DNA of 64,000 nucleotides from Minisyncoccota bacterium. GTDB taxonomy: Bacteria; Patescibacteriota; Minisyncoccia; Phycocordibacterales; UBA9973. The DNA lies in the NCBI GenBank assembly GCA_041663005.1, contig JBAZRK010000002.1, positions 205,402-269,401 on the forward strand. Reading direction: 5' to 3'. Shown in pieces: positions 26,464 to 51,461 of the stretch (positions within the stretch are counted from its first letter, which is position 1; each line of letters starts with the position of its first letter). The notes beneath the pieces were generated by a model. It was given only the letters and a program-made list of their open reading frames with translations, was not told the DNA's origin and did not search any database. The translations under genes were made by a program, and so were the position numbers.

Positions 26464-26869
26464 GATGGGTGGCAGAAAACTTCTTAAATTACTCAGTGTT
26501 CTTATTTTCGTTATATTTTTTATAAATTTTTCAGCGAACACATTCTACTGGTATTCTTCTATTGGGTATTTTGATACTATCGTTCATTATTTTGGGGGAG
26601 CATGGGTTGGATTTTTTACTTTATATTTATCCTCTGAAGAGTTACCGTCAGCTCGCTTGGTAATAAAAGTTCTTATCAGTGTTTTGTTGGTAGGAGTCTG
26701 CTGGGAAGCATATGAGCTGATAATAGATAAAGTTGTTAGCGGAAACTTCTTGAACCCCCTCGACACTGTTTCTGACCTCTTCTTCGATTTCGCGGGAGGT
26801 GCTAGCGCATTGTTGTATTATATTTATAAAATTATGTCTTTACGCACGAGTAAGGTACAATCTCAGTAA
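26464..26869 (+). CDS. hypothetical small membrane protein
   Basis: Track ORF 26426..26869. The ATG at 26464 follows an extended -10 TGTATAAT at about 26449, so the mRNA is probably leaderless. 3-4 TM helices. Confidence 0.4.
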
Positions 26870-31396: not shown

Positions 31397-33340
31397 TTGT
31401 GCTACCATAGTCACATGGATTTTAATTTTCTAAATCAAAAAGAAGAGCCAGGAAAGAAGAAAAGAGCACCCAAACAAACGAAATTTGCCGGGAACATTTT
31501 AGGGGCGATTATTTTCTTTATGCTCATTACGGCGCTCTATTTAGTAGTTTCGGGTGGAGACAAACCTAAACCCGAGGTTGCCATCTCTGAATTGGCGCAG
31601 GGGGTAGTCTCTGGGGAAGTAACTAGTATTTTAGTTGAGGGAGATAAGCTTACTGTTACCTACAAGGATGGCGCAGTAAAAACTTCAAAAAAAGAATCAG
31701 ACGCATCGCTTTCACAAACATTAGCTAACTATGGCGTCACCAGCGAGGCGCTCGGAGCGACCGAGATACAAATAAAGAGTGAGAGTGGATTTATGTTTTG
31801 GTTTGTTAATATTTTGCCGTTTCTCCTGCCGGTAGTTTTCATTCTGCTTTTCTTTTGGTACTTGTCTCGACAGGTGAAAGGGGCTGGGATGCAAGCATTT
31901 ACCTTCGGACAATCCAAGGCTCGCATTACCGATCCGAACGACAAGAACAACAGAGTTACATTCAAAGACGTTGCCGGTTGCAAAGAAGCCAAAGAAGAGC
32001 TGAAAGAAATTGTAGATTTCTTAAAAAGTCCGAAAAAGTTTTTAGACATTGGCGCCCGGATTCCAAAAGGCGTTATGCTTACAGGTTCTCCTGGAACAGG
32101 GAAGACCTTGCTAGCCAGGGCCGTAGCCGGGGAAGCTTCTGTGCCGTTTTTTCATTTGTCTGGTAGTGAATTCGTAGAGATGTTCGTGGGGGTTGGAGCG
32201 TCTCGGGTGAGGGATTTGTTTAAAATGGCCAAGCGTGCAGCTCCAGCAATAATTTTCGTAGATGAAATAGATGCTATTGGACGTACTCGAGGAGGAGGTT
32301 TCGGTGGAGGCAATGACGAGCGTGAACAAACATTAAACCAGATATTGGTGGAGATGGATGGTTTTGAGCCGAACGATAAAGTCATAGTTATGGCAGCAAC
32401 CAACAGACCCGATGTGCTCGATCCAGCTCTCATTCGCCCGGGACGTTTTGATAGAAAAGTAATGCTTGATCTTCCTGATCGGGCGGATCGTGAAGAAATA
32501 TTAAAAATTCATGCAGTAAAGAAACCTCTCGCTGAAGATATAAATCTCAAACTAATTGCTGAGCGTACACCAGGATTTTCTGGCGCAGATTTATATTCAT
32601 TAATGAACGAAGGCGCGATTCTCGCCGCGCGAGAAAACAGGAAAAAAGTTTTCCAATTTGATTTAATCCGCGCCATTGAGAAAGTCATGCTCGGGCCCGA
32701 GAGAAAGAGCCACTTGCTTTCTAAGAAAGAAAAAGAAATTACCGCGTATCACGAAGCAGGGCATGCGATAGTTGCGTCAGTTCTTCCGCATGCAGATCCG
32801 GTGCACAAAGTTTCTATTATCTCCCGAGGCAATGCCGGCGGGTATACTCTGAAACTTCCACTCGAAGAAAAAAGATTACAATCCAAAAAAGAATTCATTG
32901 ATGACATTGCTATGTCTCTCGGTGGATATGTCGCTGAGCAGATGATGTTCGGGGATATTACTACAGGCCCCTCAAGTGATTTACAAGTAGCCACAAATAT
33001 CGCCCGAGCCATGGTGACCCGATGGGGGATGTCCGAGCTCATCGGTCCGATAGCATTGACCGAATCTCCCGGGCGCGTGCAATACGGTGAAATTCCAGAA
33101 AAAGAATTTTCAGAAAATGTAGCCACAAAGGTGGACGGTGAAGTATCGCGCATAATAAATGACGGAATGAAGTCTGCGGAGAAGGTTATTACGGAAAACA
33201 AGAAGGCCTTTACTGCCATTGCCGAGAAATTGATTGAAGTAGAAACGATAGAGCAAGAAGAATATGAAAAAATTCTCGTAGCGCACGGAATATTGTTAAA
33301 AAAGAAAGACATCGTCGCTCCTGTCGAGGGGATTAAATAA
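31397..33340 (+). CDS. ftsH: ATP-dependent zinc metalloprotease FtsH
   Basis: AAA Walker [20 protein letters not shown] zinc motif, N-terminal TM helices. The start may be the ATG at 31412. Confidence 0.9.
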
Positions 33341-33388
33341 TTTTTTCCGGTTGTTTTTGACCTGGAAATGGTATATTCTACCCTTAAC

Positions 33389-33462
33389 CCGTCCTTAGCT
33401 CAGTTGGTTAGAGCACAGAGCTTATACCTCTGGGGTCCTTGGTTCGAATCCAAGAGGACGGA
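33389..33462 (+). tRNA. tRNA-Ile with anticodon UAU (manual fold)
   Basis: Acceptor CCGTCCT/AGGACGG, D-arm GCTC-AGTTGGTTA-GAGC, anticodon stem CAGAG/CTCTG with loop CTTATAC (anticodon TAT), T-arm CTTGG-TTCGAAT-CCAAG, discriminator A; CCA not encoded. Confidence 0.6.
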
Positions 33463-33626
33463 CACTAAAAATCTAAAAAATTTACCTCGTACGGGCTTGT
33501 AGTTGCTCGATTTTACAGAGTGTCTCTTGTTTTATTTTTTCTCCTGTTTTCTTTTGCAAAGTTTTCCAAAAAACAGTGGTTTTCCACTTTACATTGAGGG
33601 GCTAACTGCGTGATAATGATAGTCCA

Positions 33627-34175
33627 ATGATCGACAAGATAAACAAGACAGGTAAATTTTTTCTCCTAGCAATCTTCTGTACTATAGTGCGACTCTTGCC
33701 TTTCCGAGCGCCTAATGTAGAGCCAATTTTAGCCTCAGTGATGCCCTTAAGTGGAGTGTATGGAGCGCTAGCGGGGTTTTCTTTTGGAACATTTAGCGTG
33801 CTGCTCTACGATATTATTACCGGAACCTTCGGAGTGCATACATTTTTCACCGCAGGAGCATATGGAGTGCTTGGAATCTTGGCGGCGAGCTATTTCGAGC
33901 ACAAGGAAGCCAATATTTCAAACTACGTACGTTTTTCAATAATCGGAACTCTGTTTTTCGACGTTATTACCGGGTTGGTAGTTGGTCCAGCATTCTTTCA
34001 CCAGCCTTTTCTTGCCGCGCTTTCCGGACAAATACCTTTCACTCTATTTCATCTCGTAGGCAACGTTGCCTTTGCAGTTACTTTAAGCCCAGTTATTCAT
34101 CATCTTCTAATTAAAAAGAGAAAGCCCAGTTCGGCCGCCGCTCTTATCGACACATTTAATCCTAAAGTAATTTAA
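33627..34175 (+). CDS. small polytopic membrane protein, ECF-transporter S-component-like (substrate unknown; possibly vitamin/cobalamin uptake)
   Basis: 182 aa with 5-6 TM helices; lies directly upstream of class II RNR and a PduO adenosyltransferase. Confidence 0.3.
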   Translation: MIDKINKTGKFFLLAIFCTIVRLLPFRAPNVEPILASVMPLSGVYGALAGFSFGTFSVLLYDIITGTFGVHTFFTAGAYGVLGILAASYFEHKEANISNYVRFSIIGTLFFDVITGLVVGPAFFHQPFLAALSGQIPFTLFHLVGNVAFAVTLSPVIHHLLIKKRKPSSAAALIDTFNPKVI

Positions 34176-34181
34176 AAATCC

Positions 34182-36476
34182 ATGAAACCAACAGAAAAAA
34201 TTTCAAAAAGCGACTTAGCAAAAATAAAAACAATTCGACGCCGCAGCGGCGAGGTGGTGCCCTTCGACCTCGAGAGGGTTGCTACTGCCGTTTTCAAGGC
34301 CTTTGAAGTTACCGGGGAGGGTGGACAGCAAGCTTCGGAGAAAATTGCCAACAACGTTTTCAAAAATTTATTGAAATTGCACGATGACCTGGTAAAGGAA
34401 AACAAAAGTGCAAAATTTTTACCTACAGTGGAGTTGGTGCAAGATTTTGTTGAAAAAGAATTGATGAATGACGGATTCACCGACACCGCCAAGAAATATA
34501 TTTTATACAGAAACAAACGTTCCGAACTTCGTGCCACTTTCGGACCTGTTTCCGAAGAAGTTCGAAAGGCTGTCGAAGAATCTAGCAAATATTTTTCTAG
34601 CGCTTACTCTGAATATATTTTCTACCAATTTTATTCGCGTTGGGTTCCTGAGCTCGGCCGACGAGAAACATGGGTAGAGACTATCGACAGATATATGGCG
34701 TACATGAAAGAGAACCTCGGCAACAAGCTTACCGGGAAGGATTACGAAGACTTGCGCCAAGGCATCCTAAATCAAGACGTATGTCCTTCTATGAGGCTTC
34801 TTTGGTCCTCTGGCAAGGCCTGCCGACAGTCTAATGTATGGGCCTATAACTGCTCATACATTGCCCCTACCTGCACCCAGGACCTGGGAGAAATAATGTA
34901 TATATCTATGTGCGGAGCGGGTCTAGGCTTTGCCGTGGAATGGGAAAATGTTCAGCAATTTCCTCAGATAAAGAAGCAGACGGGAGGCAAACCTCTTACT
35001 CACGTAGTAGTAGACAGTAAGGAAGGCTGGGCGGACGCATTTGTGATGGGTCTCGACGCTTGGTTCGGAGGTAAAGACATAAAATTTGATTACTCACAAA
35101 TCAGGCCAGCCGGTGCGCGCCTTGAAACAGCCGGAGGTAAAGCTTCGGGGCCGCAGCCACTGATGGACCTTATGGAATTCGCTAAGAGGAAAATTTTAGC
35201 AAAACAAGGACGCCGACTCTCGAACATCGATATGCATGACGTCATCTGCCAAATCGGAATGATTGTCGTGGCTGGAGGAGTACGCCGCAGCGCCCTCATC
35301 TCTCTGTCAGAGTTAGAAGACACCGAAATGCGAGACGCAAAAAAGGGACAATTTTATTTGACTGAAGAACAACGCTCGATGGCTAACAACTCCGCTGTTT
35401 ACAATGCCAAGCCTTCAGCTGAAGAATTCTTGGATGAATGGACAGCGCTAGTGAAATCGAAATCTGGTGAACGAGGAATTTTCAACCGTGCCGGATTAGA
35501 AAAACAAGTTCCAGCTCGCAGGTGGGAAGCAATCAAAGACGAAAGACAAATGGGATTAAATCCATGCGGAGAAATTTATCTTCGCTCAAAACAATTCTGC
35601 AACCTTACTTCTATAGTTGTGCGTCCCAAGGATACAGTAGAGACGCTAAAAAGAAAAATGGAACTGGCTACAATCTTGGGAACGTATCAGTCTACGCTTA
35701 CCAACTTCGGATACCTGTCCAAGAAGTGGAAAGAAAATTGTGAAGAGGAAAGATTACTCGGAGTTTCTCTCACTGGCTACTACGACAACCCAGTCATAAG
35801 AAATGATAAAGTTCTCGACACACTTAAGGCTGTGGGCGTAGAAGTAAACAAGAAGTACGCCAAGAAGCTCGGCATCAATGCTTCCACTGCTATCACCTGC
35901 GTTAAACCTCACGGAAATTCCGGACAGCTCTTGGGTGTAGGAAGCGGAATGCATCCATGGTTCGCTCCTTACTTCATCCGCCGAGTACGAATTTCTCACA
36001 CCGACACATTGCTCAAGATGGCTCGAGACCAGGGAGTGCCTTGCGTACCTGAAGTAGGACAAGCAGAAGCTACAGCTACAACCTTCGTCCTTGAATTCCC
36101 TGTAAAGGCGCCGGCCGGAGCAATCTTTAAAGATGAAGTGAAGGCTCTCGACTTAATGAAAGAATGGAAGAGACTCAAGGAGCATTTCGTAGAGCACAAC
36201 CCTTCAGCAACTATCTACGTGGGCCCCGATGAGTGGATTGCGGTAGGCAACTTTGTCTACGAGAACTGGGACTGGATAGGAGGGCTATCTTTCTTGCCTC
36301 GCTCAGAACACGTGTACCAGCTTGCTCCATATGAAGCTATAACTAAAGAAGAATACGAAAAGAGAACCAAGGCTATCGGTAAAATCGATTTCTCCAAGCT
36401 TTCTCAATACGAAGCTGTAGACAATACCACCGGAGCCAAAGAATTCGCTTGTGTGTCTGGCGTCTGCGAAATATAG
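34182..36476 (+). CDS. nrdJ: adenosylcobalamin-dependent (class II) ribonucleotide reductase with an N-terminal ATP-cone
   Basis: ATP-cone (KIKTIRRRSGEVVPFDLERV…), active-site NPCGEIYL motif, C-terminal CVSGVCEI; no nrdB-like partner nearby. Confidence 0.65.
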   Translation: MKPTEKISKSDLAKIKTIRRRSGEVVPFDLERVATAVFKAFEVTGEGGQQASEKIANNVFKNLLKLHDDLVKENKSAKFLPTVELVQDFVEKELMNDGFTDTAKKYILYRNKRSELRATFGPVSEEVRKAVEESSKYFSSAYSEYIFYQFYSRWVPELGRRETWVETIDRYMAYMKENLGNKLTGKDYEDLRQGILNQDVCPSMRLLWSSGKACRQSNVWAYNCSYIAPTCTQDLGEIMYISMCGAGLGFAVEWENVQQFPQIKKQTGGKPLTHVVVDSKEGWADAFVMGLDAWFGGKDIKFDYSQIRPAGARLETAGGKASGPQPLMDLMEFAKRKILAKQGRRLSNIDMHDVICQIGMIVVAGGVRRSALISLSELEDTEMRDAKKGQFYLTEEQRSMANNSAVYNAKPSAEEFLDEWTALVKSKSGERGIFNRAGLEKQVPARRWEAIKDERQMGLNPCGEIYLRSKQFCNLTSIVVRPKDTVETLKRKMELATILGTYQSTLTNFGYLSKKWKENCEEERLLGVSLTGYYDNPVIRNDKVLDTLKAVGVEVNKKYAKKLGINASTAITCVKPHGNSGQLLGVGSGMHPWFAPYFIRRVRISHTDTLLKMARDQGVPCVPEVGQAEATATTFVLEFPVKAPAGAIFKDEVKALDLMKEWKRLKEHFVEHNPSATIYVGPDEWIAVGNFVYENWDWIGGLSFLPRSEHVYQLAPYEAITKEEYEKRTKAIGKIDFSKLSQYEAVDNTTGAKEFACVSGVCEI

Positions 36477-36508
36477 CTCTAGCTCTAAAATAGGAGTAAA
36501 ATAAAAGT

Positions 36509-36607
36509 ATGCTCTACACAAGAAAAGGGGACGGCGGCACCACCAAGACTTTTGGTTGCAATAGTATTAGAATATATACATGTCATTTTTATTGCAGGTT
36601 GCGATAA
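36509..36607 (+). pseudogene. 5' fragment of a pduO-type adenosyltransferase gene (17 codons), duplicate of the 38024 gene start
   Basis: 36509-36562 is 47/54 nt identical to 38024-38077 and encodes MLYTRKGDGGTTKTFGC (identical for 17 aa); the frame then runs into unrelated AT-rich sequence. Confidence 0.55.
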
Positions 36608-38007
36608 TATTTAGCCTATATTTATTTATAAGAGTAACTATTAGTTTACTTCTTAAATTTCGTATTTTTGTAAAAAATTGGTTTTTTCAAGGAGTAATTT
36701 TCAGTGTAGGTTTTTATTTTTTTGTAAGTATTTTATATAAGTGGTTGTACCACTTAACAGGACCAGCCTCTTTTGAGACATACAATTCTTATCCGTTCCT
36801 GTTTAGCGCTGTGTCCGGATTCGGTTTACTTCTAGGCATTGACGCATTTACCGCCTTTTTTTGTTCCGTAATTTTTTTTGAAAGTTATAAGCATGTAACC
36901 CCTAAAACATTTTCTTCTAAATGGTTTGTATTTATACCTAACCTTATTTATCTAATCCTCACTTTTATCTTCATAAGAATGGAAGGCTCTGGCGAAGCCG
37001 CGGGCTGGGGGATAATAGGCTTGATTTTTACTCTGCCCCTCGCGATTCTTTTTCCGATGGTTTGGATATTTTTCAGCGAAAAATCTGAAATTAAAGTTCA
37101 GTCTGTTGAAAAGGCAAATGAACCAGCGAATACCCAGCACCAGATTCATTGGTGGTGGCTTGTAGTTGTGCTTGCGTCATTTATAGCTGTCTTGGTTTGG
37201 CAAGAAATATCCATTAATCGTGCCGTTAACCAGAGTCAACAATACGACGCTGATGCGGTTAAAAGATTTCAGGAAGAACAAAATAAAATTGATTTATATG
37301 AAAGTCAACCTCCGTCGCCCAACCCGATATTTGATAATGCCATTAAAAAAGCCAGATATGCGCTGGCGGAGCATTTAGATGTACATGAATCTGCTGATGA
37401 TATATCTATAAAATCTTATACGCTTAAATCACCAGAAGAATGGATGTATTTTCAGTTCTGTAAAGAATTTTCTTTGGGCTACGTATTATTCCAAAATTTT
37501 CCTAGTGGGCAAAAAATTTCCACCGAAGGAAACAGTAAAGTTTTATCTTCGCGCCAAATAATTCTAACAGCAGAAAACAAGCTTCCTGCTTTAATATCTG
37601 TTCCCGTACATATTGCTTCACCTGTTCCTACCACCTTATCCTTTGATTACCAGTGGAGCGGGAATGAGAGGACCGAGCTAGATATTCTTGTTAATGGAAA
37701 CCGTGTAAATTGGGCCTATTTACTTACGCCTAGCCTAGGTAGTAAAGGATTTGCCAGAGGTATTTATTTAGCAAACCAATTTTATGAAACTAAGCCAGGC
37801 TGGAATACCTTTACTTTTAAATTGTCTCCATATGTAAATGGCACGGCCACAATATCTAATGTTGAGTTAGTGGATGATGGGTTGATACCTGGGTGTACCA
37901 CCAGCCGAAGCGAATATAGGCAAGTCGTATATACCTATAATAATATCGATTACTATTATTTGTTTGATAGTACTGGAAATTATTTCCGAATGGGTGATTA
38001 TAGATAA
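36580..38007 (+). CDS. hypothetical membrane protein (about 6 TM helices plus a ~270-aa C-terminal, probably extracytoplasmic, domain) on an AT-rich insertion
   Basis: 475-aa ORF; very AT-rich (about 30% GC) relative to its neighbours; flanked by the duplicated pduO 5' end. Confidence 0.5.
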   Translation: MSFLLQVAIIFSLYLFIRVTISLLLKFRIFVKNWFFQGVIFSVGFYFFVSILYKWLYHLTGPASFETYNSYPFLFSAVSGFGLLLGIDAFTAFFCSVIFFESYKHVTPKTFSSKWFVFIPNLIYLILTFIFIRMEGSGEAAGWGIIGLIFTLPLAILFPMVWIFFSEKSEIKVQSVEKANEPANTQHQIHWWWLVVVLASFIAVLVWQEISINRAVNQSQQYDADAVKRFQEEQNKIDLYESQPPSPNPIFDNAIKKARYALAEHLDVHESADDISIKSYTLKSPEEWMYFQFCKEFSLGYVLFQNFPSGQKISTEGNSKVLSSRQIILTAENKLPALISVPVHIASPVPTTLSFDYQWSGNERTELDILVNGNRVNWAYLLTPSLGSKGFARGIYLANQFYETKPGWNTFTFKLSPYVNGTATISNVELVDDGLIPGCTTSRSEYRQVVYTYNNIDYYYLFDSTGNYFRMGDYR

Positions 38008-38023
38008 TTAACAAAAAACTTTT

Positions 38024-38581
38024 ATGCTCTACACGAGAAAAGGGGATGGCGGTACCACGAAGACTTTCGGATGCGATCAGCGCATTTCTAAGAGCTCGCT
38101 CGTAGCTGAAGCTCTGGGCTCGCTTGATGAAGCGAATTCTTTTCTTGGGGTAGCTCGAGCCCGCTCAACACGAAGGACGTTTAAAATTGGCGCTGAAGAA
38201 TTAAAATTCTCCGAGCTTGTTTTAGAAGTTCAGCAGAATTTATTTATTGTGCAGGCGGAAGTGGCGGGGTCTACCTTGTCTATTGATAAAGAAAAAGTTT
38301 CTAGGGTTGAGCACATAGTAGATGAAATAGAAAAAGTTCTTCCGCCCATAAGTAGTTTCTTCATTAGTGGTTCAACGGAATTGTCGGCGACTTTTGATTT
38401 CGCACGCACATTAGCCCGCCGAGCCGAGAGGAGAGTGGTGGCAGCAAAAGAAGAAGGGAAAATTACCGTGAGCGACAACACAATGTCGTACCTAAATAGA
38501 CTATCGAGTTTGTTGTATGCGCTGGCAAGAATTTCGAGCCACATAGATGGAGTCGAAGAACCCAAGCCCACATATAAATAA
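38024..38581 (+). CDS. pduO: ATP:cob(I)alamin adenosyltransferase, PduO type
   Basis: MLYTRKGDGGTTKTFGCDQRISKSSLVAEALGSLDEANSFLGVARA is the canonical PduO-type N-terminus. Confidence 0.75.
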   Translation: MLYTRKGDGGTTKTFGCDQRISKSSLVAEALGSLDEANSFLGVARARSTRRTFKIGAEELKFSELVLEVQQNLFIVQAEVAGSTLSIDKEKVSRVEHIVDEIEKVLPPISSFFISGSTELSATFDFARTLARRAERRVVAAKEEGKITVSDNTMSYLNRLSSLLYALARISSHIDGVEEPKPTYK

Positions 38582-38582
38582 T

Positions 38583-40763
38583 TTATTCGAAATGAAAAAC
38601 GCCCGCCTTGGAGCTAACTTTTTTCTTTAGAAGAGGATAATTCTTTAACTCAGGATCTTTTTCAATTAGAGCAATAGCTTCTGTGCGCGCAGCTTCCACC
38701 ATTTTTATATTTTTTATAGCTTCCATACCTAGGTCGGTGATACCCCATTGTTTGGTGCCGCCGAGTTCTCCCGCACCACGAAGAGATAAATCCAATTCTG
38801 CGAGCTCGAAACCATTTTTTGCAGTTTTCAGGGCTTTTAATCTACTTATGGTTTTTTCACTCTTAGCGTCGGCAAAAATATAACAATATGCTTGGTGGGC
38901 GCTTCTGATGACGCGCCCGCGAAGCTGGTGAAGCTGAGCCAAGCCAAAACGTTCGGCACCTTCAATAATTATTATTGTGGCATTTGGTACATTAACGCCG
39001 ACTTCGACTACGGAAGTGGCGCATAAAATATTTATTTTCCCATCAGTGAATTCCTGCATTACTTGTTCTTTCTTTTCTTTACTCATCTTGGAGTGAAGGA
39101 CGCCGATTTCGTACTCTTGGAAAACTTCTTTCTTTAAGCGTTTGGCTTCCGCCATTACGGACTTCACGTTTAAAGCCATTTCTTTTTCCGGATCCGGTTC
39201 GTTGATTCTAGGGCAAATCACATATAGCTGGCGTCCGGCTCCGAGCTCTTTTCTTATTTCTTCATAAGTCTCACCACGCTTGGGTGGAGTAATTATTTCA
39301 GTAATTATTTCCTTTCGCCCTGCTGGCATCTCGTCCAAAAGTGAAAGATCTAGGTCTCCATAAATAGTGAGCGCCAGAGTGCGGGGGATGGGGGTCGCGG
39401 TCATCGATAAAAGGTGCGGAGCCAGGCCGTCCTTGCGCACCAGCTTTCTTCTTTGTGCAGTTCCGAAGCGGTGCTGTTCATCAATCACTGCCAATGCCAA
39501 ATTTTTAAATTTAACAGTTTTCTGAATTAAAGCGTGTGTGCCTATAAGGATAGGTACCTCTCCGTTGGCGACCCACTTTAGTAATTGCGGCCTAGAAATT
39601 GTAGTCCACCCGCCAGGATTTACTTTCGAGGGGAATTTCCTACAGCCACTCCCGGTGATTAGGCCTACGTTTATCGGTAGGTGGTTAAAATACTTTATAA
39701 AAGATTCGAAATGTTGAGTTGCCAGTATTTCTGTAGGTGCCATATAGGCCACTTGCAGGTTTCCAAAATCCTGAGGCTTGCCCTGAGCGAAGTCGAAGGG
39801 CCTTTGCTTTACTGCCACATAGCTTGCAGTCGCAGCGACTGCCGTTTTACCACTCCCGACATCACCCTCAAGCAGGCGCGACATCGGGTAAGTTCTTTTC
39901 ATATCGCCAAGAATTGTTTCGATAGACTTTTTCTGGCTCTTGGTAGGCTCAAAAGGGAATCTCGATAAAAATTCTTCCACATCTCCTTCTCTGGGTGTAA
40001 TTTTAAAAGATTTATTTTTGCGATATTCAAATTTGTCGTGTTGGCGTTCGAGCTGGATGCAAAACACTTCTTCGAAGGCAAATCTTTTGCGCGCAGATTC
40101 GGCGTCATTTTTATTTCTTGGTTTGTGCATCCAAACAAGTGCAGTTTTAAGCGTCGGGAGGTGATATTTTTTTAAAATTTCTGGAGGTATATAGTCGACA
40201 ATAGTGTCGAGAGTTTTATCTTTCAAAACTTTCTCTACGGCGTGATAAAACCATTTTGAAGTAATGCCTCTAGTCTCCGCATAGACAGGGTAGGAGAAGC
40301 CTTCGTTCGAAGCTCCGCTTTGTTTAAACAAAGTATCGTGTGCATCAATCGGCATATCAGGGGCCTTTTCAAATTCAGGATTTGCTAAGTAAATGCCATT
40401 TTTACTTTCCGTAACTTTTCCGGTGAGCTTTATGGTGTCACCGCTTTTAATCATCTTTGCTAGGTAGGCTTGGTGGTACCAAATTATTTTGATTTTTCCG
40501 GTTAGGTCTTCGACCTCACCTTCACCCATTGGGATTTTAGAACGGAACCCCTTTTTGGTCCTAAGCTTTGCCACCTTACCATATACGGTAGCTGTGTCTC
40601 CGGGCAGCAATTCATCTATGTTTTTTATCACACTCATATCGCTGTAGCGTACAGGGAAATGGAAAAGCAGGTCCCCCACAGTCACAATCTTAAGTCGAGC
40701 CAAGGCCTTCTTCTGGAGGGTGTCAGGGTGTAATTTAATCTCAAGTCTATCGTCTAAATTCAT
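38583..40763 (-). CDS. recG: ATP-dependent DNA helicase RecG
   Basis: Wedge domain plus SF2 helicase motifs (GDVGSGKT, DEQHRFG, TATPIPRT). Confidence 0.85.
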   Translation of the reverse strand: MNLDDRLEIKLHPDTLQKKALARLKIVTVGDLLFHFPVRYSDMSVIKNIDELLPGDTATVYGKVAKLRTKKGFRSKIPMGEGEVEDLTGKIKIIWYHQAYLAKMIKSGDTIKLTGKVTESKNGIYLANPEFEKAPDMPIDAHDTLFKQSGASNEGFSYPVYAETRGITSKWFYHAVEKVLKDKTLDTIVDYIPPEILKKYHLPTLKTALVWMHKPRNKNDAESARKRFAFEEVFCIQLERQHDKFEYRKNKSFKITPREGDVEEFLSRFPFEPTKSQKKSIETILGDMKRTYPMSRLLEGDVGSGKTAVAATASYVAVKQRPFDFAQGKPQDFGNLQVAYMAPTEILATQHFESFIKYFNHLPINVGLITGSGCRKFPSKVNPGGWTTISRPQLLKWVANGEVPILIGTHALIQKTVKFKNLALAVIDEQHRFGTAQRRKLVRKDGLAPHLLSMTATPIPRTLALTIYGDLDLSLLDEMPAGRKEIITEIITPPKRGETYEEIRKELGAGRQLYVICPRINEPDPEKEMALNVKSVMAEAKRLKKEVFQEYEIGVLHSKMSKEKKEQVMQEFTDGKINILCATSVVEVGVNVPNATIIIIEGAERFGLAQLHQLRGRVIRSAHQAYCYIFADAKSEKTISRLKALKTAKNGFELAELDLSLRGAGELGGTKQWGITDLGMEAIKNIKMVEAARTEAIALIEKDPELKNYPLLKKKVSSKAGVFHFE

Positions 40764-40800
40764 ATGGAAAGTATATAACTAAATGTGATATAATACACCC

Positions 40801-41052
40801 ATGGATACATTTTCACAGTCAGAGCTTTTCTTTCTTATTTCCTCGGTTGGGTTTGTTTTGTTGTGGATACTCGTAGCCATCCTGCTTTTCTACCTTATTC
40901 GCATTACCCACAGTTTCTCCCGAATTATGGACAAGATAGAAAATAGTGTAAACAAGATAGGCGACACGACCAAGGAAATGCTTGAAGACTTGAGGGACAG
41001 CACATTATTTAGTTTTTTATTAAGAAGAAGGAGAAAAAGTCGCAAAGAATAA
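40801..41052 (+). CDS. hypothetical small membrane protein
   Basis: Single TM helix; the preceding extended -10 TGATATAAT (40786-40794) implies a leaderless transcript. Confidence 0.35.
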   Translation: MDTFSQSELFFLISSVGFVLLWILVAILLFYLIRITHSFSRIMDKIENSVNKIGDTTKEMLEDLRDSTLFSFLLRRRRKSRKE

Positions 41053-42849: not shown

Positions 42850-43734
42850 ATGGACAATCTCAGGCCTTTTAAGCCGAAAAAAGAAAAGCAAGAAGTGGAC
42901 GGTATCACAGTTGAAAGTAGAAGAGAGCCTACAGAGCAAGAGACGTTGACCGAAGCTCAGCGAGACTATGCAAACGAACTGCAAGAGAGGCTAGACGGCA
43001 TGGCCGCTGAAACAATTTTAGCAGAGCCTGATTCACCTGATTTTTCAAACTTAAATTTGGAAAAAATACGTAGTTTCACATCTCGCGGTAGCTCCAAAAT
43101 TCTCTTTGAAAATATTTTGTTCCAACAAGGTAATAAAATTTCACCAGAACAACAGCAAATACTTCGTTTATATATCTCACTAATTCAACATGATCGGTTA
43201 GGAAAAGAAGGGGGCGGATTATACCCGAACGACCCAAAATATTCTTCGGAATCTTTCAACCTGGAACAGCAAATAAGAGAGAAAGAAATAAAATTATGCC
43301 GGGAGGCTTTGGGCGACGAATTGGCTAAGCTTGTGGATGGTATAGATAAATATGTTCGAGACAATTGGGGCAGTACATCTTGGCAAGAAGAAATCGCAAC
43401 TCGTAGAGCAGAGGCTATGCCAGTTACAGATGAAGCCACAGACCTGCTGGATCTTTCAGAAATTGTCTACTCAATGAGTATGACAGAAGAAGGCACTGGA
43501 GATTTAGAAGCAGCACGTATTCGGCGGCAAATACAGGAAGCACGAGAAGCACTTCCCGAGGCTGTAAAAAAGTGGAATTTTCAAACAGATAATATCTTTT
43601 TAAAAAATGCACTGGAAGTGAATCACAATCAAGAAATAAGTTATCAACATGACCTTGCTATGGCGACTATGAAATTTTTAGATGACAAGGTGAAATCCAG
43701 ATTAGCGGAAATGAAAATGGGGGAGCAAGAATAA
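42850..43734 (+). CDS. hypothetical protein
   Basis: Track ORF 42745..43734. The first ATG past the Nudix stop is at 42850 (MDNLRPF…). No known motif. Confidence 0.4.
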   Translation: MDNLRPFKPKKEKQEVDGITVESRREPTEQETLTEAQRDYANELQERLDGMAAETILAEPDSPDFSNLNLEKIRSFTSRGSSKILFENILFQQGNKISPEQQQILRLYISLIQHDRLGKEGGGLYPNDPKYSSESFNLEQQIREKEIKLCREALGDELAKLVDGIDKYVRDNWGSTSWQEEIATRRAEAMPVTDEATDLLDLSEIVYSMSMTEEGTGDLEAARIRRQIQEAREALPEAVKKWNFQTDNIFLKNALEVNHNQEISYQHDLAMATMKFLDDKVKSRLAEMKMGEQE

Positions 43735-46358: not shown

Positions 46359-47495
46359 TTGAAGATGAGTAATCTATTAAATAAAATTTTTTCAGGTTTC
46401 CAGAAAATCACTCCCGGAGGAGGAGAAAATTCAGCAATTGGGGTAGATGTTGGGACCTCGGCAATTAAGATCGTGGAGATAAAAAGGAAAGGGGGTAAGG
46501 CTGTACTTGAAACCTACGGCGCTATTGCACTTGGTCCATATGCGGACATGGAGGCGGGTCGTGTTACTAATTTGCCTATAGAGAAAACCGTGGAGGCCTT
46601 GAAAGAAGTATTGAAACAGTCTGACGCTCGGGGGAGTGACTTGGCGCTAGCTGTGCCCATACAATCAAGCTTAATTTTTACTATTGAACTTCCAGCGAAC
46701 ATAGGCGCGGATGAAATTGAAGCAATTGTTCCAACCGAAGCCCGAAAATATATTCCCGTACCGATAACTGAAGTTTCTTTAGACTATTTTATTTTACCGA
46801 AAAAAGAAGCGTCTTTTGAAGAGTTGAATACGGACAGTGCTACGACAGTTGCCGAAAGCAAAATTAACATTCTTGTTGTAGCTACCCAAAATGATGCTGT
46901 GGCGAAGGCGCGGTCAGTTGTTTCCGCCTGTGGTATGTCGGCGTCATTTTTTGAAATAGAAATATTTTCATCGATTCGTGCCAACTTCGAGCACGAGCTT
47001 TCCCCAGTCTTGCTGATGGATTTTGGAGCGTCACGCACGAAGTTATCTCTAGTTGAGTTCGGTATGGTGAAAAGCTACCATACGATTGATCGTGGCGGAG
47101 CCGATATCACGAATTCCATTTCAAAATCGCTCAGCATCCCGTTTCAAGATGCGGAAAAAATGAAGAAAGATTTCGGACTTTTTGGTAGCCCATACGAGAA
47201 ATCTTTGGCAGATATTGTAAAGGTTCACATAGACTATATATTTTCGGAGACCAACAGTGTATTGCTCGGATATGAAAAGAAATACGGACGAACCGTCAGT
47301 AAAATAATTTTCACCGGCGGAGGGGCGCTCTTGAAAGGACTCCAGGAAACCGCGGCCGATAATTTCAGAGCTGAAATGGAGATGGGGCATCCGTTTTCTA
47401 AAGTTGGAGCACCCCAATTTTTAGACAAAGTTTTAGCTACTATGGGTCCGGAATTCGCTGTAGCTCTGGGGCTTGCCTTGCGAAAATTGCAATAA
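46359..47495 (+). CDS. pilM: type IV pilus assembly protein PilM (actin-like ATPase)
   Basis: IGVDVGTSAIKIVEI…TGGGALLKGL is an actin/HSP70-fold PilM pattern. Confidence 0.7.
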   Translation: MKMSNLLNKIFSGFQKITPGGGENSAIGVDVGTSAIKIVEIKRKGGKAVLETYGAIALGPYADMEAGRVTNLPIEKTVEALKEVLKQSDARGSDLALAVPIQSSLIFTIELPANIGADEIEAIVPTEARKYIPVPITEVSLDYFILPKKEASFEELNTDSATTVAESKINILVVATQNDAVAKARSVVSACGMSASFFEIEIFSSIRANFEHELSPVLLMDFGASRTKLSLVEFGMVKSYHTIDRGGADITNSISKSLSIPFQDAEKMKKDFGLFGSPYEKSLADIVKVHIDYIFSETNSVLLGYEKKYGRTVSKIIFTGGGALLKGLQETAADNFRAEMEMGHPFSKVGAPQFLDKVLATMGPEFAVALGLALRKLQ

Positions 47496-47592
47496 TTCTT
47501 CGTTCCAGCTATAGAAATTTAATTTACAGTTGCCGAGTTATACACAATTTACTTCATTTGAGTTTGCGTTTGTTATATAATATATAGGATAA

Positions 47593-48189
47593 ATGGAGCA
47601 AAATTTTCAAACATCATTTATACCTAAGAAGCCGATTATCAAACAACGCGCTGAGGCTTCGCGGCCTGTGAACCCGTTGCTTGTCATTGCGCTTTTTATT
47701 TTATTTACGGTGCTTGTCGCCTCGGGGGGGTTGTATTTTTATACCCAGCTTAAAGGCAAAAATCTTGAAAATATGAAAACGAGTCTTGGTATAGCACAAA
47801 CTCGTTTTGAACCGACCAAGCTTGCCGAGTTACAAGTGTTAGATAAGCGTCTCCTTGCTGCTAATAAGGTTCTCTCTCAGCACATCGCTGTTACGCCTAT
47901 TTTCGAAGCACTAGAGGATATAACAATGAAAACTGTTCGTTTTACTTCTTTTGCTTATTCGATAGGGGAAGATATTAACTCTCCCATAGAGGTGAAAATG
48001 TCGGGAGAAGCCGTGGGCTATCGTCCCATCGCGCTTCAATCAGATTTGTTTGCCAAAAACAAAATTTTTATCGACCCCGTTTTTTCGAATTTATCCCTAG
48101 ACCAAAATGGCAATATTGTTTTTGATTTAACTTTTTCCATAGATCCGGAGGTTCTAAATTATAAGCAGACTATATCTACAGACGTTTAG
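47593..48189 (+). CDS. pilN: PilN-like bitopic pilus assembly protein
   Basis: Single N-terminal TM helix and periplasmic-type domain; position after pilM. Confidence 0.4.
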   Translation: MEQNFQTSFIPKKPIIKQRAEASRPVNPLLVIALFILFTVLVASGGLYFYTQLKGKNLENMKTSLGIAQTRFEPTKLAELQVLDKRLLAANKVLSQHIAVTPIFEALEDITMKTVRFTSFAYSIGEDINSPIEVKMSGEAVGYRPIALQSDLFAKNKIFIDPVFSNLSLDQNGNIVFDLTFSIDPEVLNYKQTISTDV

Positions 48190-48199
48190 TTTTTAAAAA

Positions 48200-48790
48200 A
48201 TGAAATTTTTTATACCAACAATTTTAATAGCCATAGCCGTAGCTGTATTTTTCCTATTCACTTCACCAACTTACGACAAGCTGTCGCTCCTCCGCACTGA
48301 AATTAAATCCTATGACGAAGCACTGGGGAATTCCAAAGCACTGGAGGATAAACGGGATAAATTAACTGCCAAGAAAAATTCTTTCCGCACAGAAGATTTG
48401 AGTCGACTAGAAAAGCTTTTACCCGAAAACGTAGACAATATCCGCTTGGTGCTCGAGATAGAGCAGTTGGCAGAGCCTTATAATATGGCGCTCAAGAATG
48501 TAAAATATGATGCTGCTGAAGGTCCAACTCCTCCAAAGGGGAGTAAGGTGGCGACTAGCAATGCTCGTCAAACTCGTGAAGACTATGGCGCCCTTGAGCT
48601 GGAATTTACCGTAGTTGGCACTTACGACAAATTTGTTAACTTTGTGCGCGACTTAGAAAATAATTTAAGGATTGTGGATATCTCCTCAATTACTTTCTCT
48701 TCAAATAATCCAACAATTGTAGGAAAAGCGGTTACTCCGGATTTATATGAATACAATATTCGCATTAAAACTTATTGGTTAAAGAATTAA
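48200..48790 (+). CDS. pilO: PilO-like pilus assembly protein
   Basis: N-terminal TM helix and coiled coil; position. Confidence 0.35.
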   Translation: MKFFIPTILIAIAVAVFFLFTSPTYDKLSLLRTEIKSYDEALGNSKALEDKRDKLTAKKNSFRTEDLSRLEKLLPENVDNIRLVLEIEQLAEPYNMALKNVKYDAAEGPTPPKGSKVATSNARQTREDYGALELEFTVVGTYDKFVNFVRDLENNLRIVDISSITFSSNNPTIVGKAVTPDLYEYNIRIKTYWLKN

Positions 48791-48791
48791 A

Positions 48792-49223
48792 ATGCCCAAA
48801 ATAAGAAACATCATAATATTCATATGTATTGCGGCGGCGGTATTTCTTGGGTATTTTTACTTTACCAAAACGCGACCACCAGAGGAAGCGGCCCTTGTAT
48901 CTTTACCTGTAACTCAAGATTCACCCACTTCAAACGACGTGCCTAACTCCGACGTAGATTCAGGTACACCGGTCCTAGCCGGCGAGTTTCTGTCTCTTCT
49001 CCTTAGCGTAGAAAATATAAAACTAGAAGATGCTATTTTTTCTAATCCGGCCTTTAAGAATCTCAAAGATTCTAGTATTGTTATTACCGGTGATGGTACA
49101 GAGGGAAGGCCGAACCCATTCGCACGCATAGGATCTGATGCCCCCGTAGCGCCTATTACCCCTCCCGCAACAGAAACTCCTCCAGCTTTTCCGCTTCCAC
49201 CAACTGAACCTGCAACCGAATAA
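48792..49223 (+). CDS. hypothetical TM protein with a proline-rich tail (PilP-like by position)
   Basis: Position only. Confidence 0.25.
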   Translation: MPKIRNIIIFICIAAAVFLGYFYFTKTRPPEEAALVSLPVTQDSPTSNDVPNSDVDSGTPVLAGEFLSLLLSVENIKLEDAIFSNPAFKNLKDSSIVITGDGTEGRPNPFARIGSDAPVAPITPPATETPPAFPLPPTEPATE

Positions 49224-49241
49224 AGGAGGATAACACAAGCC

Positions 49242-50981
49242 ATGAGTTTTTTAGAAGAATTAGCCAAACAAGGCGTAATAGATAAAAATAAAATAGGAGA
49301 AATCAAAGATCGCGCGCGCGAAGACCATGGTGGCGATATAGACGAGGCGCTTGTGAGTCTAGGAATTCCCGCTGAAAAGATATTAGAACTCAAAGGAGAC
49401 TATTTAGGTATTCCCGTCAAGAAATTAAATATCGAAGAGATGTCTTTCGATGCCCTGAAATACATATCGGAAGATTCTGCTGTGCACTATCGCTTTGTTC
49501 CACTGGAACTTAAAGATGGGGTGCTGGAAGTTGGCGTTACAGACCCTGAAAACATGCAAGGCATGGACGCTTTGCAGTTTATTTCTACTAAAATAGGTCT
49601 TCCTTTTAAAGTTTTTCTTATTTCCAAAAACGATTACGATAGTGTTATAGAAACCTATAAAGGCATTGAAAGCCAGGTGGGAGAGGCGCTAGAGGAATTA
49701 AGTAAAGAAGAGATAGACGACGTAAAAAAATTAAGTGCGGAAAATCTTAATAAGGAAATCAAAAATATAGAGCCCGGTAATGAAAAAATAGTTGAAGACG
49801 CACCGGTTATAAAAATTGTCGCGGTAATTCTCCGGAACGCCATCGAAGGAAATGCCTCAGATATACATATTGAGCATATGGGAGAAAAGGTTAAAGTCCG
49901 CTTTCGGGTGGATGGGGCACTTCACACAACCATAACCCTACCACCGAGTGTTTATGCGGGAGTCGTGGCCCGCATTAAAATTTTAGCTAAATTGCGCTTA
50001 GACGAGAAACGCAAGCCTCAGGATGGATCATTCAGTGCCAATATAGACAATCGTAAGATAGATTTTCGCGTATCTACAATGCCAGCGTATTATGGAGAGA
50101 AAGTCGTAATGCGAATCCTCGATTCCGAGAAAGGGGTGAAACCCCTCGATCAGTTGGGACTCTCCGAAGTCAATTTAAATATAATTCGAGAAGCAATAAA
50201 GAAACCCTACGGACTCATTTTAATTACTGGTCCTACCGGTTCTGGGAAATCCACTACTCTTTATTCAATGATGAACGAGCTCGATAAAGAAACTTCAAAC
50301 ATTATTTCTTTAGAAGATCCGGTGGAGTACCATATGCCTGATATTAACCAGTCACAGATGATGCCAGAAATTGGTTATACTTTCGCTTCCGGTCTACGTT
50401 CAATTCTTCGCCAGGACCCGGATATAATAATGGTGGGAGAAATTCGTGATAAAGAAACGGCCCAGCTGGCTATCCAGGCCGCGCTTACGGGGCACTTGGT
50501 TCTTTCGACGCTTCACACCAACAGCGCCGTGGGCGCCATACCGAGGCTCGTAGACATGGGTGTGGATCCATATTTAATTGCTCCGACGTTAATCGTTTCC
50601 ATTGCCCAGCGGTTGGCTCGTCTCACATTTCCAGCCTCACGAAAGGAGGTGCCTATGGATCCAAGTGTACGTACGCAAATCGAAGAACAGATGAGAGATT
50701 TGCCGGAACAATGGCGACCAGCGATAGGAGACAAGATGTACGATATCGTGCCTTCTCCTGAATGTCCTTCCGGGACACGCGGGCGTATAGCGGTTTTCGA
50801 AATGTTCAAGGTGGATAAGGAAATGCAGTCAGTAATATTGAAGAATCCGGTTAACTCGGAAATTTATAGAGTCGCTCGAAAGAATGGAATGCTCATCATG
50901 CGCGAAGATGCTATGTTGAAATCACTGCAAGGACTCATTCCTTTTACAGAGGTATATAATTTTAATAATGAAACAGAGTAA
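49242..50981 (+). CDS. pilB: type IV pilus assembly ATPase PilB (GspE family)
   Basis: Walker A GPTGSGKSTT, Asp box, His box, tetracysteine motif (CPSG…); SD AAAGGAGGA upstream. Confidence 0.85.
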   Translation: MSFLEELAKQGVIDKNKIGEIKDRAREDHGGDIDEALVSLGIPAEKILELKGDYLGIPVKKLNIEEMSFDALKYISEDSAVHYRFVPLELKDGVLEVGVTDPENMQGMDALQFISTKIGLPFKVFLISKNDYDSVIETYKGIESQVGEALEELSKEEIDDVKKLSAENLNKEIKNIEPGNEKIVEDAPVIKIVAVILRNAIEGNASDIHIEHMGEKVKVRFRVDGALHTTITLPPSVYAGVVARIKILAKLRLDEKRKPQDGSFSANIDNRKIDFRVSTMPAYYGEKVVMRILDSEKGVKPLDQLGLSEVNLNIIREAIKKPYGLILITGPTGSGKSTTLYSMMNELDKETSNIISLEDPVEYHMPDINQSQMMPEIGYTFASGLRSILRQDPDIIMVGEIRDKETAQLAIQAALTGHLVLSTLHTNSAVGAIPRLVDMGVDPYLIAPTLIVSIAQRLARLTFPASRKEVPMDPSVRTQIEEQMRDLPEQWRPAIGDKMYDIVPSPECPSGTRGRIAVFEMFKVDKEMQSVILKNPVNSEIYRVARKNGMLIMREDAMLKSLQGLIPFTEVYNFNNETE

Positions 50982-51065
50982 ATAAGGTAGATTATATGAA
51001 GTTTTCCCCGAAAGATTATAACCTAAGTTGGTGTATGGTATAATGAATGGGTAGTGTTAAATCCT

Positions 51066-51458
51066 ATGGAAAAAGAAAAAAAGAAAATTCTAATAGTTGA
51101 CGATGACAACTTCTTGCTTGATATGTATGCGCTTAAATTCAGCCAGAATGATTTCGAGGTGTACACGGCCGGTAGCGGTATGACTGTCTTGGATAAGCTC
51201 CACGGAGGGTTAACGCCCGACGTAATATTGATGGACATAATAATGCCCGAGATGAACGGCTTTGAGGCGCTTGACCAAATTAACAAAGAAGGTCTCTGCC
51301 CAAACGGTATTAAAATTATCTTATCCAACAAAAGCGAGCAGAAAGATATTGAAGAAGGCAACCGTCTTGGGGTCGCCGGATACATAGTCAAAGCTAATTC
51401 CACGCCGGCGGAGGTCATAGAGCAAGTGGTGAAAATTTTAGAAAACAAAAAAGTATAA
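51066..51458 (+). CDS. response regulator receiver domain protein (PilH/CheY-like)
   Basis: KILIVDDDNFLLDMY…MDIIMPEMNGFEAL. The track ORF begins at GTG 51054; ATG 51066 is more likely. The promoter TGGTATAAT at 51036-51044 leaves a leader of about 15 nt. Confidence 0.6.
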   Translation: MEKEKKKILIVDDDNFLLDMYALKFSQNDFEVYTAGSGMTVLDKLHGGLTPDVILMDIIMPEMNGFEALDQINKEGLCPNGIKIILSNKSEQKDIEEGNRLGVAGYIVKANSTPAEVIEQVVKILENKKV

Positions 51459-51461
51459 ATT

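Follow-up and report, generated by a model that had tools for sequence, protein, structure and literature searches.

The nrdJ–pduO locus and its parts

The window that we analysed, a stretch of 64,000 nucleotides, belongs to an uncultivated, ultra-small groundwater bacterium (Candidatus Paceibacterota). At the locus considered here, nrdJ is followed by a stub of the pduO 5' end (c1), by an open reading frame of 475 codons (orf475), by the intact pduO, whose first 54 nt form the other copy of a repeat (c2), and by recG; nrdJ and pduO are both vitamin-B12-related (Table 1).

Table 1. Features of the nrdJ–recG region, in window coordinates
Feature	Position	Strand	Remarks
nrdJ, adenosylcobalamin-dependent ribonucleotide reductase, 764 aa	34182..36476	+	conserved left flank
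native nrdJ–pduO spacer	36477..36508	+	TAAAAT -10-like box at 36497-36502, 6 nt before the stub ATG
c1, stub of the pduO 5' end, codons 1-18	36509..36562	+	opens a 32-codon ORF, 36509-36607
c1–orf475 spacer, 17 nt	36563..36579	+	TAGAAT -10-like box at 36568-36573, 6 nt before the orf475 ATG
orf475, predicted 6-TM membrane protein with a modelled extracytoplasmic beta-sandwich domain; very rare family	36580..38007	+	
orf475–pduO spacer, 16 nt	38008..38023	+	without a TAnAAT box
c2, first 54 nt of the intact pduO, other repeat copy	38024..38077	+	
pduO, PduO-type ATP:cob(I)alamin adenosyltransferase, 185 aa, intact	38024..38581	+	
recG	38583..40763	-	conserved right flank, convergent with pduO; syntenic in relatives

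NrdJ carries the Pfam domains ATP-cone, RNR-II_ins_dom and Ribonuc_red_lgC, and matches the NCBIfam model RTPR at 6e-85, yet under that model's cut-off. Its amino acid identity is 81–93% in nearly all syntenic relatives, and 61% in one of them (L025). The intact PduO matches PF01923 over its full length (profile positions 1–170 of 171; 3.8e-44, 151.2 bits, cut-off 24) and scores 131.7 bits with TIGR00636, over the cut-off of 108.45. The precomputed Pfam domains of RecG are RecG_wedge, DEAD, Helicase_C and RecG_dom3_C. No riboswitch or known RNA was found in 33000–41000.

The stub lies where pduO begins in relatives, 32 nt past the nrdJ stop codon (3–256 nt in the relatives), and gtaaaataaaagt, directly 5' of its ATG, is common to the spacers of the closest relatives, L088, L092 and L002. 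The frame that it opens overlaps the start of orf475 by 28 nt; the idea that a frameshift joins the stub to orf475 was discarded, as the overlap is without a canonical slippery site.

Promoter calls rest on the spacing of TAnAAT boxes, a genome-specific test that replaced a generic sigma-70 scan; the latter, like a terminator scan, gave nothing above shuffled controls. A TAnAAT box lies 3–13 nt 5' of the ATG in 18 of 66 genes, against a background of 2.3%, and Shine-Dalgarno-like motifs are seen in only six of the 66. The spacing of the TAGAAT box of orf475 is typical for this genome.

A sequence-only reading of this DNA had put the insert at about 30% GC. We measure 36.0% for the insert and 36.4% for orf475, as compared with 43.4% for the window, and 30% is reached only in the first ~300 nt. 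In three independent contexts, members of the orf475 family have a higher AT content than their neighbours, so low GC cannot be used to date an arrival. The insert consists of one ORF, in which no integrase, transposase or terminal inverted repeats were found, and the genes listed for ~10 kb to each side include no integrase. An insertion sequence, transposon or MITE was rejected, there being neither terminal inverted repeats nor a transposase, and the flanking repeat being 54 nt long and 13% diverged.

Divergence between the two pduO starts

A repeat search pairs 36508–36562 with 38023–38077 (55 nt, 87% identical, spacing 1515). When the 54 nt of c2 are scanned over both strands of the whole window, 47 match at 36509, the figure reported in the sequence-only reading, while the next best of ~128,000 positions matches at 28 (mean 13.4, sd 3.2). 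The copies differ at gene positions 12, 24, 30, 36, 45, 48 and 52. The first six differences fall on third codon positions and are synonymous, both copies encoding MLYTRKGDGGTTKTFGC; the seventh is at a first codon position and gives N versus D at codon 18. The synonymous third-position pattern that had been described thus holds for six of the seven differences, along with the 17 shared amino acids. The longest run of identity between the copies is 11 nt, and at the 3' edge of the repeat just 3 nt are identical. No further diverged gene-end repeats were found in the window or in more than 80 related loci.

In tblastn, c1 matches PduO residues 1–18 with 94% identity (E = 4e-6). Since it reaches only positions 1–18 of the 171 in the Pfam profile Cob_adeno_trans (14.4 bits, cut-off 24) and its frame ends after 32 codons, c1 is a gene fragment rather than a second enzyme. 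Its homology to pduO stops after codon 17/18, where all relatives read on as CAGCG[CT]AT, and this places the left junction of the rearrangement at about 36560–36565. The 'ATAG' that follows c1 repeats the last 4 nt of nrdJ, the only hint of microhomology at the join. A crossover at TGCGA, shared by the nrdJ end and pduO codons 17–18, was rejected, because the observed junction would need extra deletions.

Over the 17 shared codons the copies agree at 45 of 51 positions, and c1 agrees with the starts in L003 and in L019 at 46 of 51 each. Orthologous starts from different species that code for the same 17 amino acids agree on average at 41.2 of 51 positions and at most at 47, and by this measure the divergence of c1 from c2 is within the between-species range of pduO starts. 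If the repeat had arisen by duplication in situ and the stub had been neutral, the finding that all six differences in these codons are synonymous would have P = 0.002; we therefore reject a local duplication whose stub then decayed neutrally. Each copy resembles a genuine pduO start, and the two seem to have diverged in separate lineages with the protein sequence under constraint, in line with the earlier proposal that they evolved as functional starts in different genomes. Judged from these comparisons, the stub is a piece of the downstream gene derived from a different lineage than the intact pduO. Synonymous sites are saturated, so 54 nt do not decide which copy is the resident one.

The orf475 family and the empty and occupied sites

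The start of orf475 at 36580 is backed by the N-termini of distant homologs; NCBI annotates only a 420-aa version. The 475-aa protein had been read as having about six TM helices and a large domain of the extracytoplasmic type, and our predictions agree, giving six hydrophobic segments and a 263-aa C-terminal domain on the outside. No curated family (Pfam, NCBIfam, PHROGs, PADLOC) matches orf475 or its homologs, and to this extent the statement that the protein has no recognisable family stands; about 1.8 billion representative proteins do include four very distant homologs (24–33% identity). Word-indexed protein searches, queried either with the sequence alone or with the alignment of the family, returned only orf475 itself and P0125, and no relatives were found with family alignments as query in JGI metagenome contigs (two scans) or viral contigs (one scan). 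The family, with five members in about 15 billion proteins, is one of very rare, fast-evolving membrane proteins. As two of the five share the nrdJ/pduO site, it is a candidate for work on host interaction or corrinoids.

In a structure model of medium confidence (pLDDT 70.8; a single-sequence AlphaFold model, at pLDDT 46.8, was unusable), residues ~275–470 form a beta-sandwich loosely like those of an L-type lectin and carbohydrate-binding modules (ERGIC-53, CBM8, CBM11, CBM29, CBM36, CBM66). The likeness does not extend to sequence, identity being 3–16%; unlike in these proteins, the sandwich is fused to a six-TM domain that matches no family, and a Foldseek comparison with solved folds gave no match at E <= 0.001. 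The orf475 product is probably an accessory protein of the cell surface whose beta-sandwich ectodomain binds a ligand.

In about 47 related genomes and contigs whose nrdJ–pduO junction could be read (~42 syntenic species-representative genomes, and contigs including L088, L089 and L092), pduO follows nrdJ directly, 3–256 nt apart, and neither the orf475 gene nor a second pduO start is present. Two pduO starts occur in this genome alone among 86 related loci scanned. In contigs L085/L086, a member of the orf475 family stands between the nrdJ end and pduO; as this is another lineage, an 'occupied' variant of the nrdJ/pduO locus exists. The PduO of L085/L086 is 82.7% identical to the one studied here, tying with the closest known relatives, and the occupied site of L085 is without a stub. 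Near the family members in L082, L083 and L084, no pduO-like sequence was found.

In 200-nt sliding windows, identity to 75 relatives is at most 84.5% at the nucleotide level, and the nearest neighbour switches from window to window. As every relative stays at or below this value in any such window, no imported tract or breakpoint is visible. No signal of an imported tract came from the nearest neighbours of each gene, from regressing PduO distance on flank distance, or from sliding identity, and no phylogenetic anomaly of PduO relative to its flanks was found.

Probable recombination between versions of the site, and other routes to the same structure

In our reading, the locus marks past DNA exchange between diverged relatives and not a new kind of genetic element. 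It is probably the scar of recombination between two diverged versions of one chromosomal site, the common 'empty' nrdJ–pduO and the rare 'occupied' nrdJ–orf475–pduO. DNA would have been taken up from a relative diverged to near synonymous saturation and integrated by homology-facilitated illegitimate recombination, in which one side pairs by homology within a conserved flank and the other is joined without homology. The non-homologous join, at ~36560–36565, would have left 17–18 codons of one lineage's pduO (c1) beside the orf475–pduO of the other.

Within this model, two directions of transfer would give the same product. In the first, to which we give slightly better than an even chance, orf475 and pduO are the incoming piece, anchored in recG or the 3' part of pduO, and the resident pduO would have been replaced from codon 19 onwards. 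In the second, which falls a little short of even, the lineage would already have had nrdJ–orf475–pduO, and the incoming piece would be the nrdJ 3' part with the spacer and the first ~51–54 nt of pduO from an empty allele. It would have been anchored in nrdJ and joined just upstream of the orf475 promoter, the join being illegitimate because the piece would have lacked the length and the similarity needed to pair with the start of the resident pduO; we take the longest shared run of 11 nt to be too short for efficient homologous pairing of the copies. The sequence-only reading had suggested that the insert arrived by recombination with a related strain's variant locus. The occupied sites of L085/L086 bear out the existence of such a locus, but that the insert was the arriving piece is not established, since import of the stub would give the same structure.

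After the exchange, the native pduO-type promoter would drive only the 32-codon leaderless stub ORF, and orf475 would be transcribed from its own TAGAAT box. The intact pduO would have lost its own -10 box and is probably co-transcribed with orf475.

Homology-facilitated illegitimate recombination is known from natural transformation of Acinetobacter, Streptococcus pneumoniae and Pseudomonas stutzeri, and has also been invoked for type VI secretion effector-immunity and Rhs arrays. As in those cases, where the recombination and the resulting gene stubs have been described (PMC3240628; PMC5361080), one conserved flank would serve as anchor while the other end is joined without homology, and foreign DNA comes to lie beside a conserved gene with truncated 'orphan' pieces of the displaced allele remaining. 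Here, in contrast, the mechanism is deduced from one natural product in an uncultivated genome, with donor, anchor tract and any microhomology invisible, and what is left over is the 5' end of a gene together with its promoter, rather than a 3' end or an immunity gene. The locus also resembles variable genes that homologous recombination swaps between conserved neighbours, as in capsule and O-antigen locus switching, in that a rare accessory gene lies between the conserved nrdJ and pduO, at the same site in two lineages and not in about 47 others. A clean double crossover leaves no stub, and thus one crossover here was not homologous.

To our knowledge, natural transformation in Patescibacteria has so far been shown experimentally in Saccharibacteria only. 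Transformation through ComEC was demonstrated there, and conservation of com genes extends over the candidate phyla radiation (PMC10633639); for groundwater Patescibacteria, competence has been discussed as a way in which genes are exchanged (PMC12455944). A cluster of type IV pilus genes, with pilM, pilB, pilT and pilC, is present in the window. In this ultra-small and uncultivated bacterial group, the locus would be a clean natural footprint of DNA passing between deeply diverged lineages. It illustrates how an essential module for B12-dependent nucleotide synthesis can gain or retain a putative accessory gene for a surface protein, and how such a gain may rewire the promoter of the downstream gene. 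Current understanding is left unchanged by it; its value is that of a worked example and a lead.

Anchoring in flanks that are probably only ~75–85% identical would be inefficient, which speaks against the recombination model, as does the fact that this is a single event in a single genome, where other routes to the same structure look alike. One such route, which we consider unlikely, has two steps: a foreign orf475–pduO was inserted 3' of the resident pduO, and a later deletion removed everything from codon 19 to just before orf475. The final structure would be the same, two starts that both evolved under constraint would be accounted for, and the pduO–recG spacer is indeed variable in relatives (0–2.8 kb). 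This route needs two rare events where one is enough, though, its intermediate with two pduO copies is found in no relative, and no remnant of a pduO 3' end follows c1.

Lower still is the probability that a circle of ~1.5 kb, carrying orf475 and a mimic of the pduO start, integrated site-specifically into the pduO 5' end with a recombinase acting in trans. The direct repeats have the topology of a Campbell-type product, and a second family member occupies the same nrdJ/pduO site. There is a likeness to prophage e14 and phage 21 in icd of E. coli, where a duplicated gene end (the icdC fragment) flanks the inserted DNA. According to PMC13626634, which cites Hill et al. 1989, the icd copies at e14 differ mostly conservatively or synonymously because each evolved as a working gene end, and the locus studied here shares this trait of a duplicated gene end with copies differing only synonymously in 17 codons. 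E14, however, encodes an integrase, has an identical core at the crossover and duplicates the icd 3' end, for which it carries a replacement, whereas at this locus it is the 5' end that occurs twice, the inserted DNA amounts to one gene of 1.4 kb, no recombinase is encoded in it or nearby, and, with differences spread from position 12 to 52, an identical core is lacking. Moreover, the occupied site without a stub in L085, the family members away from pduO-like sequence in L082–L084, and the lack of viral or PHROG relatives of orf475 all tell against integration of this kind. The broader proposition that the family is the cargo of an unrecognised recombinase-less or trans-mobilised Patescibacteria cassette, which targets the first codons of pduO and brings its own replacement start, is if anything even less probable. 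Were this so, the cassette would be the 5'-end equivalent of phages with icd or tRNA genes as their integration targets, and, as pduO transcription would be taken over, the surface protein would be tied to B12 cofactor activation.

We find it very improbable that the pduO start was duplicated locally at insertion and the stub then kept by selection on its peptide or on a role as a leaderless uORF. The stub does retain a promoter-like box, an ATG and an open 32-codon frame overlapping the orf475 start. Selection on translation initiation would keep the ATG and not 17 amino acids, though; 18 residues cover only the very beginning of a 185-aa enzyme; the copies are as divergent as those of different species, with a synonymous excess that a neutral stub would not explain; and the stub peptide is absent from the 86 related loci.

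An assembly chimera of two co-occurring strains, a concern here because the genome was assembled from short metagenomic reads, and one that the sequence-only reading had advised checking, can be given hardly any credence: the longest shared run is too short to mislead a k-mer assembler and leaves no k-mer path for a false join, the orf475 protein is present in NCBI (two accessions), JGI/IMG, ENA and Logan, and the separate Logan assembly of SRR6484324 is 100% identical over 4671 nt (window 33580–38250), spanning both junctions.

The duplicated pduO start

The window is a stretch of contig JBAYHS010000002.1 from the Candidatus Paceibacterota metagenome-assembled genome GCA_041666025.1, in which an ECF-S-like membrane protein gene is followed by nrdJ (B12-dependent ribonucleotide reductase), a 475-aa ORF (orf475), pduO (ATP:cob(I)alamin adenosyltransferase) and, on the other strand, recG. 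The strongest local direct repeat of the whole window pairs the start of the intact pduO (c2) with an upstream stub (c1). When c2 was scanned along both strands, the top match was c1 (47/54 at 36509) and the runner-up reached 28/54 among ~128,000 positions; the second copy reported in the sequence-only reading is thus real. The copies differ at seven gene positions (12, 24, 30, 36, 45, 48 and 52). Third codon positions account for the first six, all of them synonymous, so that both encode MLYTRKGDGGTTKTFGC, and the statement that the 17 shared codons differ only synonymously holds (6/6); the seventh alters codon 18, which is Asn in c1 and Asp in c2.

An assembly artefact behind this arrangement is excluded for practical purposes. 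As the longest run identical in c1 and c2 is 11 nt, a k-mer mis-join is not credible, and window 33580-38250 recurs with 100% identity in a Logan assembly of run SRR6484324 that is independent of the deposited genome.

Coordinates of features (window positions unless a contig or protein is named)
Feature	Position	Remarks
Palindromic repeat copy	3480-3554	between two unrelated genes
Low-GC3 ORFs	381-1181; 26465-26869; 42850-43734	GC3 0.30-0.36, no Pfam match
tRNA-Ile gene	33389-33463	anticodon TAT (UAU)
nrdJ	34182-36476	
Direct repeat	36508-36562; 38023-38077	55 nt, 87% identity, spacing 1515 nt (repeat search)
c1	36509-36562	stub
ATAG	36561-36564	stub end
orf475	36580-38007 (+)	475 aa
NCBI call of orf475	from 36745 (TTG)	420 aa; omits 36580-36744
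c2	38024-38077	start of intact pduO
pduO	38024-38581	
Type IV pilus cluster	46365-53785	PilM, PilB-like ATPase with MshEN domain, PilT-like ATPase, PilC
P0124 gene	L085 50-937; L086 50-937	membrane half only
Palindromic repeats, nrdJ-pduO spacer	L004 4859-5000; L009 4867-5000	also in L006, L017, L019, L029, L030, L036, L040
Membrane segments, orf475 protein	7-25; 34-52; 81-99; 116-134; 145-163; 194-212	hydropathy, n=6
Lys/Arg-rich loops, orf475 protein	26-33; 100-115; 164-193	
Beta-sandwich, orf475 protein	~275-470	predicted

A PduO query against species-representative genomes retrieved 80 loci, ~42 of which (L002-L041, L043, L075, L078) keep the order ECF-S, nrdJ, pduO, recG with 3-256 nt between nrdJ and pduO; pduO also directly follows nrdJ in L088, L089 and L092, whose PduO proteins are among the closest known. 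A family HMM run on six-frame translations finds no relative of the 475-aa protein in any of these loci, and none of 86 related loci scanned has a second pduO start; two starts occur only in the sequences of this genome itself (the window, L001, L087). Since c1 begins 32 nt past the nrdJ stop, and the spacer leading up to it ('gtaaaataaaagt' + ATG) can be recognised in L088, L092 and L002, it occupies the ancestral pduO start position. Past codon 18, c2 and all relatives read CAGCG[CT]AT...; c1 reads AGTATTAGAATATATAC and then the ATG of orf475. A 32-codon ORF begins at c1 and overlaps the start of orf475 by 28 nt in a different frame.

The convergent pduO-recG gap ranges from ~0 to 2.8 kb among relatives (L008, L010, L021, L024, L075, L078 and others), so that side of pduO is also a variable region. 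Many relatives' nrdJ-pduO spacers contain palindromic repeats of ~100-140 nt, in either orientation and belonging to at least two sequence families. These have no Rfam match and look like MITE/REP-type elements common to several species.

A small membrane-protein family

The 475-aa protein has no match in Pfam, NCBIfam, PHROGs or PADLOC, and among 5.8 billion clustered proteins it finds only itself. An exhaustive HMMER search over 1.84 billion representative proteins returned four remote homologs: P0122 (471 aa, E 4e-40) and P0123 (558 aa, E 6e-33), both 28% identical over the full length, with weaker matches to P0125 (549 aa) and P0124 (295 aa). The earlier verdict of no recognisable family therefore stands for the four databases but not for the HMMER search. 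The family alignment contains the motifs PPxPNP[IV]FDAA, FC, PC...SE.R.V.F and SG.YF, with two conserved cysteines toward the C terminus. The N-termini of the distant homologs and the JGI, ENA and Logan gene calls back the ATG at 36580; the NCBI call is judged too short, and the public record consequently lacks the first two membrane helices.

The about six TM helices and large extracytoplasmic-type domain proposed from sequence are borne out by six hydropathy segments and a 263-residue C-terminal domain, predicted to lie outside the cell from the positions of the Lys/Arg-rich loops. AlphaFold2 with a five-sequence alignment (pLDDT 70.8) predicts a beta-sandwich, and we conclude that the orf475 product is anchored in the membrane and has a predicted ectodomain of generic lectin/CBM-like type.

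The insert is less AT-rich than had been proposed: its GC is 36.0%, with ~30% confined to the first ~300 nt. The values for orf475 are 36.4% GC and GC3 0.315, against 43.4% GC for the window and GC3 0.438 +/- 0.056 for its 66 long ORFs. This low GC is no sign of recent arrival, because family members elsewhere are also lower in GC3 than their neighbours (0.274 versus 0.409 in the adjoining pduO in L085, 0.479 versus 0.625 in L083). Three further low-GC3 ORFs in the window may be lineage-specific accessory genes.

The Logan contigs L085 and L086 both carry the gene for P0124. Each opens with the last nrdJ codons (...CVSGVCEI*), and the P0124 gene lies 23 nt beyond them and 7 nt before a full pduO, without a stub. 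The PduO of these contigs (P0007) is 82.7% identical to that of the window, on par with the closest relatives known. A member of this very rare family therefore sits at the same site in a second lineage, and the related variant locus that had been envisaged is found. The P0124 gene looks like a decaying copy, as only the membrane half is present and its frame ends inside the TATAAT box before pduO. The remaining three family members lie at other sites (P0123 after HMA/DsbD_2 and cupredoxin genes) or on contigs too short to judge, with no pduO-like sequence found nearby.

Origin of the two copies

The peptide MLYTRKGDxGTTKTFGC[DN] is nearly invariant across the clade, leaving only synonymous sites free to vary. 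For the 16 relatives whose 17 aa are the same, the 51 nt compared pairwise agree at 41.2 positions on average (range 36-47); c1 matches c2 at 45/51 and L003 and L019 at 46/51, so the two copies are about as different as pduO starts of different species. When in-situ duplication was simulated with c2 constrained and c1 neutral, conditioned on six differences, c1 retained the identical peptide in 0.18% of runs. Together these results provide good support for the proposal that both copies diverged as working gene starts in different lineages; selection on the stub peptide as the force keeping c1 intact is implausible.

The insert contains no recombinase, transposase or terminal inverted repeats. 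Target-site duplication is ruled out for the 54-nt repeat, which is diverged, and recent gene conversion is excluded, the differences being evenly spaced.

The structure is most simply explained by recombination of an occupied (nrdJ-orf475-pduO) with an empty (nrdJ-pduO) allele from lineages that had diverged close to synonymous saturation, with a homologous exchange on one side and an illegitimate join on the other. Such a one-sided pattern is named homology-facilitated illegitimate recombination (PMC3240628); stubs and orphan genes of type VI secretion and Rhs arrays have been attributed to it (PMC5361080). Two directions are compatible with the product. In the first, the anchor would lie within recG or the 3' portion of pduO, and the incoming IGR-orf475-pduO would join the resident pduO after codon 17/18, replacing its remainder. 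In the second, the resident would already be occupied and an incoming empty-allele fragment would anchor in nrdJ; its far end would extend no more than ~51-54 nt into pduO, a stretch too short and too diverged to pair with c2, and the join would fall 17-20 nt before the orf475 ATG, immediately 5' of the -10 box of orf475. Best relative identity in any 200-nt segment is at most 84.5%, with the nearest neighbour varying between segments, and PduO is no outlier against its flanks. That two separately derived gene starts were united through recombination with a variant locus is supported, while the claim that the insert is the arriving piece is not established, as both directions give the observed structure. 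The gene nrdJ itself ends in the same ATAG that stands at the stub end (...GAAATATAG); at the illegitimate join, these four bases may be left over from the nrdJ end of the occupied allele.

A two-step history, with a second pduO acquired first and a deletion later, is possible, though less parsimonious than one-sided recombination. An integrating cassette resembling e14/icd, which has the same topology and synonymous-only repeats (PMC13626634), fails: there is neither an integrase in the insert or within ~10 kb on either side nor an identical core in c1/c2, and the stub does not recur in the related loci scanned. The event is of a known type, of which this locus is a further case, and no novel type of system is involved; the tiny protein family of orf475 is new.

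DNA uptake is plausible, given the type IV pilus cluster in the window and the transformation reported in related groups: natural transformation through ComEC has been demonstrated in Saccharibacteria, com genes are conserved throughout the radiation (PMC10633639), and competence has been discussed for groundwater Patescibacteria (PMC12455944).

Predicted expression of the locus

Shine-Dalgarno-like motifs precede only 6 of the 66 long ORFs. In 18/66 genes the ATG lies 3-13 nt past the end of a TAnAAT box, as against 2.3% of random positions; these figures suggest that mRNAs with no leader, or a very short one, are common in this genome. c1 retains a TAAAAT box 6 nt before its ATG. At the same distance from its own ATG, within the 17-nt spacer, orf475 has a TAGAAT box. 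No such box precedes the intact pduO, which begins 16 nt past the orf475 stop. From this placement, the stub ORF is probably all that the native pduO-type promoter drives, and orf475 and pduO probably share a transcript.

Most bacteria decode AUA by a lysidine-modified CAU anticodon; the tRNA-Ile gene in the window has the anticodon UAU.
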